From assembly GCF_013315695.1 (NCBI RefSeq), contig NZ_CP054353.1: a stretch of 64,000 nt of DNA; one strand, given 5' to 3'. Below, piece by piece: positions 27,728 through 30,204 of the stretch (positions are counted from its first letter, which is position 1; every line of letters begins with the position of its first letter). A program made the position numbers and the translations under genes. Origin of the DNA: Escherichia coli. Its GTDB lineage: Bacteria; Pseudomonadota; Gammaproteobacteria; Enterobacterales; Enterobacteriaceae. The notes under the pieces are model-generated. The model searched no databases. It saw nothing but the letters and a program-made list of their open reading frames with translations, and was not told where the DNA came from.

Positions 27728-27968
27728 TTATGTTGGCGTTTTCTATTCAGTATAGAAGTGGGAGCGACTGGGCGAGATGCGGAAGTTCTGGAATATTTCT
27801 TTTTTTTGGATGGTGACTGAAGCAAATTGGCTACATTTTGCAATGTGACCAGTTGCGTCATAGCTGGCTGGTGGCGAAGAATTTTGACGATTGCGGCATG
27901 CAGAAAAAAACGGGTTCAGCTTCAGTTGATCAAATGGGGAGTGAGAAGTCCGAAACAGGATTTACTGT

Positions 27969-27976
27969 ATAAATAA
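27969..27976. repeat. Target-site duplication (left copy) ATAAATAA
   Basis: 8-bp direct repeat immediately outside the left terminal inverted repeat; identical copy at 29862-29869. Confidence 0.65.
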
Positions 27977-28004
27977 GGGTCTTCCCCGATCATGGTGGGA
28001 AGAC

Positions 28005-29225
28005 TCAGTACGCCATATTCAGTTTCCCATAGTGGAACATAACTCCCAGTTTAAAGCGTTCCCGGTTTCGGTATCCCCTGGCCTTTATCCTCAGCAGTCT
28101 GATCTTGCTGTTCAGCGCCTCCGCATTTCCATTCGAGACGCGATGACGCATTGCATTCAGTATTCCGTATAACCGTTTTTTAATGGTTTTCGCTGCGTTT
28201 TTCATCATCGGCACATCACATTCAGACGCCAGCGATATCCACTGCAACCAGTCATTCCTGCGTTCTGTGCTCCAGGGGCGATCCCAGATATTTTTTGCCA
28301 GCTCTTTCAGTGTCCAGCACTGGCTTGTCTGTTGCATCTGTTCCCGCAACCACATCAGCTTTTCCTGCCGGGACTCAGTCATCCATTTGTCGCTGTACTG
28401 CCACAGGAAGCGGGTACCTTTGGCCTGACGACGACTTTCAACAGGGAGGTGCGGATGTTCATTCTGGCGGGTTTTATCAACCACTTCGCCCAGTTGCTTC
28501 GCCACATGGAAGCGATCGAAGGCGATTTTCTCGACCGCATTGGGTAAATGGATACGCGCTGCTCTTATATAGCCCGCATTCATGTCCATCGACAGTGTTT
28601 TGATGGCCAACAACTGACTGTCAGTAAGCGAACGGAGATAGCTGGCAAGACTCTCTGTGCCACGATCATCGGTTAATGCCAGTGCCCGCCCGTCGCGATC
28701 AGATACCACGGTTATATACCTATGCCCTTTTTTAAAGGCGACTTCGTCTACATTCATATGACGCACTGATAAAGGCTTTTTAATCCGCGACAGGCCTCGC
28801 TTAACCGCGCGGGTCATGATGCCGTCAACGGCATTCCAGCTAAGTTTAAGTTGTTTTCTGACCGCATCAACGGTGCTGATTTTAAGCCATGAGAGCACGA
28901 ACGATTCGAACAGCAGAGTGTACCGACTGCCGGAACCTGCCCACGGTACAGGCAGAGTCTGGCAGCCATGCTCCGGGCACATAACGCGGGGAACATCGGC
29001 TTCTACTAATGTCATGAACTGGCAGGTATCAAGGTGGCGCCATTTACGATGTCGGTGATCGTGAACAGAACAGGATTTCCTGCAGGTCGGACAGGTTAAC
29101 TGAGTATTTTCAGCAATTCCGACTGTAACAGTAACGGAACCTGCATTTTCATCGAGGGTAAGGGATTTAACCTGCCATGGTGCAGTCAGGTTAAGGATAT
29201 GGGCATAGAGGGATTTTTCGTCCAT
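28005..29225 (-). CDS. ISL3-family transposase
   Basis: 406 aa. N-terminal Cys/His-rich zinc-finger-like region (CPTCRKSCSVHDHRHRKWRHLD...CPEHGC) followed by a DDE-type core, typical of IS204/IS1001/IS1096/IS1165 transposases. Confidence 0.85.
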   Translation of the reverse strand: MDEKSLYAHILNLTAPWQVKSLTLDENAGSVTVTVGIAENTQLTCPTCRKSCSVHDHRHRKWRHLDTCQFMTLVEADVPRVMCPEHGCQTLPVPWAGSGSRYTLLFESFVLSWLKISTVDAVRKQLKLSWNAVDGIMTRAVKRGLSRIKKPLSVRHMNVDEVAFKKGHRYITVVSDRDGRALALTDDRGTESLASYLRSLTDSQLLAIKTLSMDMNAGYIRAARIHLPNAVEKIAFDRFHVAKQLGEVVDKTRQNEHPHLPVESRRQAKGTRFLWQYSDKWMTESRQEKLMWLREQMQQTSQCWTLKELAKNIWDRPWSTERRNDWLQWISLASECDVPMMKNAAKTIKKRLYGILNAMRHRVSNGNAEALNSKIRLLRIKARGYRNRERFKLGVMFHYGKLNMAY

Positions 29226-29243
29226 ATAATTTCATTCTGAAGC

Positions 29244-29762
29244 TTACTTTAAACTGATATTATTATTTTTTGCCCACTTTCTTAATCTTCCATTAGCGTT
29301 GGCGTAAGGCGAAGATGTGTTAAATGAGATCATTCTCCCCATCGTCCATTTTGTGTACCATGGTCTTCCATACAAAATATCATCGGTACGATCATTAATA
29401 AGGTTCACAATCTCATTTTTTACAGTCTGAAGTTCAGCTACTAACAACTCATAACTTAACTCACTGTAATCTGAGTAAAATTTTTGAGCAAGAAGGCCAA
29501 GCTGATTCCATTTATAGCCAGTTTCCGGAAAATCGACAGGCAGACCTTTAGCATCAGAAGCGATCCACTTTACAACAAGAGCATTCCATCCAAGCAGATA
29601 CGAAACGAGATCACGAACACTCATCTCCGTTCCTTTGGCGTGTCCGTCCATTGATTTATCTGAAGTAATTTCTGGTGGGATTGTGTTGAGGTAACTAATT
29701 AATTTACTAAAATTTTTATCAATAGCTAAAAGCAGTTCAGCTTTTGTTTGCGGCACACTCAT
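29244..29762 (-). CDS. ClbS-like / DUF1706 family protein (passenger gene inside the IS)
   Basis: 172-aa ORF with features recalled for the colibactin self-resistance protein ClbS family (GHAKGT, VSYLLGW, YGRPWYTKWTMGRMISFNTSSPY...NISLK C-terminus). Located between the transposase 5' end and the right IR. Confidence 0.6.
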   Translation of the reverse strand: MSVPQTKAELLLAIDKNFSKLISYLNTIPPEITSDKSMDGHAKGTEMSVRDLVSYLLGWNALVVKWIASDAKGLPVDFPETGYKWNQLGLLAQKFYSDYSELSYELLVAELQTVKNEIVNLINDRTDDILYGRPWYTKWTMGRMISFNTSSPYANANGRLRKWAKNNNISLK

Positions 29763-29861
29763 AAGAATTCCCTCTCATGTAAAAAGAGACACCATAAAGG
29801 TACTGTGTGGTGTTTGAAAATCACTCAATTATGTACCACCCACCACAACAGGGGAAGACCC

Positions 29862-29869
29862 ATAAATAA
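29862..29869. repeat. Target-site duplication (right copy) ATAAATAA
   Basis: Identical to 27969-27976, immediately outside the right IR. Confidence 0.65.
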
Positions 29870-29884
29870 ACAGTTATTTTGTTG

Positions 29885-29950: not shown

Positions 29951-30204
29951 AGATGAAGCCCCAGGAGATATTTCTATCAACCCTGGGGCTGCCACTCCAA
30001 ACCCGAACAATTTGGATGGTAGTCCCTTCTTCGCATGGAGGCAATATAAACATGCTGACGAAATATGCCCTTGTGGCAGTCATAGTGCTGTGTTTAACGG
30101 TGCTGGGATTTACGCTTCTGGTCGGAGACTCGCTGTGTGAGTTTACGGTGAAGGAACGTAATATTGAGTTTAAGGCTGTTCTCGCTTACGAACCGAAGAA
30201 GTAG
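29938..30204 (+). CDS. mokE: mokE, overlapping reading frame that mediates hokE translation
   Basis: 88-codon frame that runs through and ends with hokE, as in hok/mok loci. True start uncertain. Confidence 0.4.
30052..30204 (+). CDS. hokE: HokE type I toxin (Hok/Gef family)
   Basis: 50 aa, [50 protein letters not shown]. Followed by hairpin TGCGGGGAGTAATCCCCGCA (30207-30227). Confidence 0.85.

Follow-up and report, generated by a model that had tools for sequence, protein, structure and literature searches.

A ClbS-family gene carried by ISEc53 within the hokE LexA box of a pks-negative Escherichia coli lineage

Stand-alone homologues of ClbS, a protein of the pks island, have been described in pks-negative bacteria, and all of the ClbS-like proteins tested by Silpe et al. 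(2022, Nature), down to 27% identity, protected against colibactin. Their panel was drawn from E. albertii, Metakosakonia/Kluyvera, S. alvi, 'E. coli 69', D. dadantii and others, and included a 172-aa E. coli protein (QDM73539) with 52.41% (87/166) identity to ClbS and a Dickeya dadantii protein with 51.2% (85/166) identity. No ISL3 carriage was described in that work, in which transposases are mentioned only around truncated clbQ-clbS remnants. Two ClbS-like families were subsequently reported in 1991 bloodstream isolates by Maklin et al. 2025 (bioRxiv 10.1101/2025.11.17.686825). There, a clbS-like gene, which differs from clbS at about 225 of 522 nucleotide sites, adjoins a single ISL3 transposase on plasmids and chromosomes; the unit was named the "clbS-like transposon", was tied to ST131, ST69 and ST95, and was also noted in pks+ isolates. 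Separately, ISEc53 is a known disrupter of fimB in ST131 and in Nissle 1917.

The DNA analysed here is a single 64,000-bp stretch, referred to as the window, in which an earlier note had proposed that a ClbS-like gene is carried as cargo by an insertion sequence. By sequence comparison, the gene is a genuine ClbS-family member located inside ISEc53, and the "clbS-like transposon" of Maklin et al. 2025 is this same element, with only the insertion site differing. The novelty implied by the earlier note therefore does not hold: ISEc53 is catalogued under that ISfinder name, PGAP already assigns the protein a ClbS/DfsB name, its structure has been solved, and the unit is described by Maklin et al. 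2025. The finding is thus correct but already known, as the element, its annotation, the protein structure and the population genetics were all public before.

The passenger gene, its carrier and its host

The features of the locus are as follows, with coordinates given within the window.

27963-27968, plus strand: left half of the hokE LexA box (TACTGT), split by the insertion
27969-27976, no strand: target-site duplication ATAAATAA, left copy
27977-29861, minus strand (the gene strand): ISEc53, ISL3 family, 1885 bp; the site is empty in E. coli AF14 (L002), and the length is the same in six copies at different loci
27977-27999, plus strand: right inverted repeat (IRR), on the transposase side, GGGTCTTCCCCGATCATGGTGGG; 19/23 positions match the left inverted repeat
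28005-29225, minus strand: ISL3 transposase, 406 aa, WP_000343765.1, starting 18 bp past the stop codon of the clbS-like gene
29226-29836, minus strand: passenger segment of 611 bp, absent from ISKox3, comprising the gene, a leader of ~74 bp and an 18-bp spacer
29244-29762, minus strand: clbS-like passenger gene, 172 aa, WP_000115885.1; DUF1706, identical to PDB 5COF
29839-29861, minus strand: left inverted repeat (IRL), on the cargo side, GGGTCTTCCCCTGTTGTGGTGGG in gene orientation
29862-29869, no strand: target-site duplication ATAAATAA, right copy
29870-29875, plus strand: right half of the hokE LexA box (ACAGTT), split by the insertion
30052-30204, plus strand: hokE, an SOS-regulated type I toxin gene, divergent from the IS genes (annotation of the identical region of E. 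coli MSB1_4I)

The passenger ORF begins with ATG and encodes a ClbS/DfsB-family product of 172 aa. Both the ORF within the IS and the motifs quoted for it in the earlier note (GHAKGT, YLLGW, YGRPWYTKWTMGRMISFNTSSPY and a C-terminal NISLK) are present as claimed, and the resemblance to DUF1706/ClbS that it proposed was borne out by profile and pairwise comparisons. Residues 1-165 match positions 1-166 of the 166-position PF08020 model (Pfam DUF1706; E 3.3e-54, 183.7 bits), and BLASTP alignment to ClbS gave 89/166 identical (54%) and 120/166 similar positions with one gap. NCBIfam models gave no match to the passenger protein, which PGAP places in the ClbS/DfsB family under WP_000115885.1. In the PDB, chain 5COF_A, deposited as an "uncharacterized protein", is identical to it at 172/172 positions. 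The protein presumably adopts the four-helix-bundle fold that its RefSeq name asserts, and the crystal structure 5COF is of the identical sequence. The next PDB match after 5COF in a phmmer search was ClbS (6ANR, E 1.1e-55), followed by a weaker group at ~1e-20 to 1e-18 that includes yeast IRC4 (E 2e-20), the Paenibacillus sibling bacteriocin 5CIV (E 8.3e-19) and a Tn1549-like conjugative-transposon ORF. The closest relative is therefore ClbS rather than the DfsB-type sibling bacteriocin (1.1e-55 versus 8.3e-19 for 5CIV).

Conservation of Tyr55, a residue singled out in the earlier note, was also found: the tyrosine of LVSYLLGW in the passenger aligns with Tyr55 of ClbS in LVSYLIGW. In ClbS, Y55 is an active-site residue, and a Y55F mutant gives no protection (bioRxiv 10.1101/431098, citing Tripathi et al. 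2017). The passenger and the ClbS of the pks island (6ANR; WP_000290498) thus belong to the same Pfam family, are of near-equal length, can be aligned end to end and share Tyr55. In contrast, their C-terminal tails differ (KWAKNNNISLK in the passenger, KLQKCLAE in ClbS), and the passenger lies outside any clb cluster, with no clbQ neighbour and in a host lineage without pks; its neighbours are the ISL3 transposase, hokE and ybdK.

The passenger likewise resembles the orphans of Silpe et al. 2022, which are stand-alone ClbS homologues in pks-negative bacteria and confer protection against colibactin on expression. The tested 172-aa E. coli protein fits P0015, a homologue 90% identical to the passenger, as matched by length and identity counts only, and the tested D. 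dadantii protein fits P0078, which is 78% identical to the passenger, as matched by identity count; both fall in the passenger's subgroup. The exact passenger sequence is not in that panel, and the E. albertii protein represents a different, 168-aa lineage.

The inverted repeats of the carrier are 23 bp long and match at 19/23 positions, and its transposase scores 328 bits against NCBIfam NF033550 (cut-off 180) and contains the Pfam domains Zn_ribbon_ISL3, HTH_Tnp_ISL3 and DDE_Tnp_ISL3 (PF14690, PF13542 and PF01610; E 1.7e-58 for PF01610). The 1885-bp sequence is 100% identical to ISEc53-annotated copies in many genomes. When ISEc53 was compared with an ISKox3 copy by blastn, positions 29226-29836 alone failed to align. 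The position of the cargo needs one small correction: the gene does lie within the IS, as had been stated, but in gene direction it occupies the interval from IRL to the transposase start.

In E. coli AF14, the flanks of which are 99.9% identical, the site carries a single ATAAATAA and no element (empty site sequence: TACTGTATAAATAAACAGTT). Since ATAAATAA is duplicated here and single in AF14, the insertion reflects a clean transposition event. The ISEc53 copy between ybdK and hokE is common to only three complete genomes, namely MSB1_4I, OZ547117.1 and MS 21-1. In E. coli CPE35 (L003) and other E. coli strains, exactly this ybdK/hokE position is occupied by ISKox3, oriented as ISEc53 is here and likewise flanked by duplicated ATAAATAA. 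Copies of IS150 and IS421 (IS186-like) also crowd this intergenic region, which is therefore an IS hot spot.

Upstream of the passenger gene, a sigma-70 consensus scan of the gene strand from IRL to the ATG detected no promoter, and inspection of this 99-bp leader by eye found just weak promoter candidates. Within the leader (29763-29838, minus strand), a 6-bp inverted repeat, ACACCA-N13-TGGTGT, lies just 5' of the ribosome-binding site. Edwardsiella copies share the intact repeat with the window, and Providencia and C. farmeri have imperfect forms of it; the leader around it is kept in all four. The repeat may act as an operator or as an RNA element.

The window is nearly identical to part of the genome of E. 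coli MSB1_4I (NZ_LR898874.1:3710759-3774758), with 5 mismatches over 64,000 positions. There, the order of the region is prophage end, ompT, cus, ybdK, ISEc53, hokE, ent/fep cluster and ahpCF. As the earlier note had supposed in describing a stand-alone homologue with no pks island nearby, no clb or pks genes were found within the 64-kb window. Similarly, no pks island is present at asnW in MSB1_4I, where the order is mtfA, asnT, HPI, shiA, amn, yeeN, asnW, yeeO and asnU, and yeeN-asnW-yeeO is uninterrupted. The empty asnW site in this near-identical genome indicates that the orphan immunity gene resides in a pks-negative lineage. Two further features of MSB1_4I were observed. Its annotation lists irp1 and irp2 of the HPI as pseudogenes. 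Additionally, relative to the K-12 order, the ent/hokE region runs opposite to flg-fab-ptsG and yedX-mtfA-cobU (2.10-2.15, 3.10-3.20 and 3.71-3.77 Mb; L011-L015), and this reversed direction implies a large chromosomal inversion.

Spread, selection and proposed role of the cargo

Of 5426 complete E. coli genomes, 674 contain the 611-bp cargo segment; these account for 937 places, 677 of them chromosomal and 260 on plasmids. Its identity is at least 99% in 722 of 732 records. Within E. coli, the segment is carried by chromosomes and by F plasmids. When any single place spanning 80% or more of ISEc53 is counted as near-full-length, the element occurs on 203 PLSDB plasmids; pUTI89, pSE15 and an Enterobacter cloacae IncF plasmid are among them. 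Six copies at different loci (the window, fimB of Nissle 1917, two prophages, pUTI89 and the E. cloacae plasmid) are each 1885 bp long and each flanked by their own 8-bp duplication. The occurrence of the identical unit in unrelated contexts, on chromosomes as well as conjugative plasmids, upholds the proposal that the gene transposes with the IS.

The passenger gene is under purifying selection, with dN/dS of 0.10-0.34 relative to homologues of 85-94% nucleotide identity. Moreover, IRL and an intact clbS-like gene are kept beside a truncated or decayed transposase in Edwardsiella, in Providencia and in an ICE-like island of E. coli, which looks like domestication of the cargo. These decayed copies are located in Edwardsiella tarda (L004), in Providencia (L008-L010) and in an E. 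coli island with AcaB, topoisomerase and ParE-like genes (L135-L136), and their transposase is truncated after ~26-95 nt or otherwise degraded. In Citrobacter farmeri (L005-L007), a clbS-like gene lies in the chromosome between a DUF4310-4312/SFCGS operon and a LysR regulator, and homology to the passenger segment extends from ~60 bp upstream to ~20 bp downstream of the gene. No inverted repeat or transposase was found beside the C. farmeri gene, and its chromosomal context is stable. This context may be the source of the cargo, or may be a fully eroded remnant.

By homology, the ClbS/DfsB-family product would be a cytoplasmic cyclopropane hydrolase, predicted to open the electrophilic cyclopropane warhead of colibactin and so to pre-empt DNA alkylation. 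A non-producing cell and its prophages would thereby be shielded from pks+ neighbours, to the presumed ecological benefit of the carrier. The gene is probably co-transcribed with the transposase gene, and because it lies inside the inverted repeats, on the same strand as the transposase gene and between it and the left inverted repeat, it would be copied at every transposition. That this exact protein protects would be expected by analogy with its relatives in Silpe et al. 2022. Overall, the passenger is read as an orphan ClbS-type hydrolase gene carried by an IS, at a probability of roughly 0.8, where we infer the activity and expression of the exact protein.

Other roles for the gene have to be weighed against this reading. 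The passenger could be a DUF1706 protein with a different job, such as acting on another electrophilic genotoxin, shielding DNA or serving as a DfsB-like bacteriocin precursor, in which case the link to colibactin would be mere resemblance. The breadth of the family speaks for this, since it takes in yeast IRC4, the Paenibacillus sibling bacteriocin and the Tn1549-like conjugative-transposon ORF, and the natural substrate could thus differ; so does the presence of homologues in Proteus, Providencia, Edwardsiella, Dickeya, Rahnella and Yersinia, for which exposure to colibactin is not obvious. A DNA-binding role for ClbS, which reportedly was described by Tripathi and Bruner in 2021, would count in the same direction. 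Additionally, the element is common in pks+ strains, and because many of these carriers (for example, Nissle 1917) already own ClbS, protection from neighbours cannot be the only reason for its persistence. However, ClbS is by far the closest characterised relative of the passenger (E 1e-55, versus 1e-20 or weaker for the others), Tyr55 is conserved, and inspection of the sequence found no signal peptide or processing features of a secreted bacteriocin. The uniform protection across the panel of Silpe et al. 2022, down to 27% identity and with 172-aa subgroup members included, also argues against a different job, which is accordingly considered unlikely.

Service to the IS itself, as an accessory factor for transposition, target choice or regulation with no benefit to the host, is less probable still. 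The gene and the transposase gene, 18 bp apart, look like a two-gene operon in which the passenger comes first, and the association of the passenger with IRL is old, with variants at 86-94% nucleotide identity in several genera. Nevertheless, ISKox3 and a third, cargo-less clade keep the same ends, the 8-bp duplication and the preference for LexA boxes, and therefore the passenger is not needed for transposition or targeting. The persistence of an intact passenger under purifying selection while the transposase decays is the pattern of a host-beneficial gene, and argues for a host benefit rather than an accessory function. Finally, a chance reading frame or a functionless, decaying relic was also considered, and is refuted by the full-length profile match, the identity to the crystallised protein 5COF, the conservation of at least 99% across hundreds of genomes and a dN/dS well below 1.

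The preferred reading is therefore that of an orphan ClbS-type gene, and the outcome for the locus is that a pks-negative gut E. coli lineage carries what its sequence indicates to be a mobile orphan colibactin-immunity gene. Such a gene is relevant to prophage induction and to how strains compete with pks+ neighbours. The item worth pursuing is the targeting of SOS operators by the carrier IS, which, if new, would matter more than the cargo finding.

Insertion into LexA boxes

At hokE, the uninterrupted sequence TACTGT-ATAAATAA-ACAGTT forms a LexA box, and a Lex box has been reported in the hokE promoter (PMC2826370). CTGT precedes the duplication, and ACAG or ACAA follows it, at five of the six ISEc53 sites and for the ISKox3 copy at hokE. 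Scans with the IRR end provided 112 further loci (2 in genome contigs, 29 viral and 81 metagenomic). CTGT lies directly before the 8-bp duplication in 62 of 78 unique left flanks, and ACAG directly after it in 31 of the 33 elements with both ends, giving the target consensus aaTACTGT-ATATATAT-ACAGTAt; in background sequence, CTGT-N8-ACAG occurs 0.016 times per kb. When 22 reconstructed targets were compared with the 20-nt LexA consensus, a mean of 16.5 positions matched, relative to 5.2 for nearby DNA, and none of ~8000 background 20-mers reached 15 matches. The genes flanking the insertions include those for UmuD, DinD, SbmC, DinI-like and HumD proteins, with hokE in the window, and plasmid insertions adjoin a DinI-like/umuD pair and a DinQ-like toxin gene.

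This preference is shared by three clades, namely ISEc53, ISKox3 and a third ISL3 clade of 1316 bp (L124, L042, L061, L068, L107 and L119). The third clade has no cargo, the same ends and the same targets, and its transposase region is ~88% identical to that of ISEc53 and ~85% to that of ISKox3. There are exceptions: the fimB site is not a LexA box, and ISKox3 is also found in capsule genes under selection. Insertions of ISKox3 run in either direction, and left and right ends share the same half-boxes. At the five ISEc53 loci in LexA boxes (the window/L001 and L017-L020, the fimB copy L016 being excluded), the gene nearest to the IRL end has its start near the junction and points away from the IS, but this set is too small for a claim of bias.

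The centre of the hokE LexA operator is thus a typical target of this IS clade. Whether ISEc53, ISKox3 and the third clade together form an apparently undescribed ISL3 group that inserts into the central 8 bp of LexA operators (CTGT-N8-ACAG) is placed at even odds. No report linking ISL3, ISKox3, ISEc53 or any IS to LexA or SOS boxes was found in the literature outside subscription journals.

Unequal duplications were found in 11 of the 33 elements, with half LexA boxes from different genes at the two ends. Loci with non-matching 8-bp flanks include L071, L081, L066, L042, L061, L068, L107, L114, L119 and L124; for instance, L071 has a umuD half-box on the left and a dinD half-box on the right. 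Such mismatched half-boxes indicate recombination between copies and suggest chromosomal rearrangement through exchange between those located at different SOS genes.

Placement of the cargo under LexA/SOS control was considered and rejected, because no LexA box is present inside ISEc53 or re-created at its junctions (the best candidate has 7/8 core matches). Similarly, the 64-kb window contains no intact CTGT-N8-ACAG, and the sole LexA box of the region is the split one at hokE. Speculatively, LexA occupancy could gate access to the target, so that SOS-triggering damage, including that by colibactin, would open these sites to a resistance gene.

If the targeting is true, the clbS-like gene would be delivered specifically into SOS promoters, splitting the operators of hokE, dinI-umuD, dinD, sbmC and dinQ-like genes. 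Each hop would then rewire the DNA-damage regulon, including the genes of error-prone polymerase V and SOS toxins, and identical repeats able to recombine together would be scattered at SOS genes. It would also explain the frequent location of the "clbS-like transposon" beside dinI/umuD-type genes on plasmids and in prophages. If new, it would mean that SOS operators are homing sites for an IS clade frequent in ST131 and on NDM, F and IncX3 plasmids.

In comparison with known elements, ISKox3 (ISL3, 1316 bp) is like ISEc53 in its transposase region (~85% nucleotide identity), its identical IRR end, its 8-bp duplication and its LexA-box target. It differs in having no passenger, with a leader of ~65 bp where ISEc53 has its 611-bp clbS-like segment. 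Strong selectivity for a defined palindromic motif of the host, as opposed to just a loosely AT-rich site, is itself familiar from IS1397 and ISKpn1, which insert in REP/ERIC palindromes, and from the hot spots of IS30. Unlike the motifs of these elements, the motif of the ISEc53 group is a transcription-factor operator, the LexA box.
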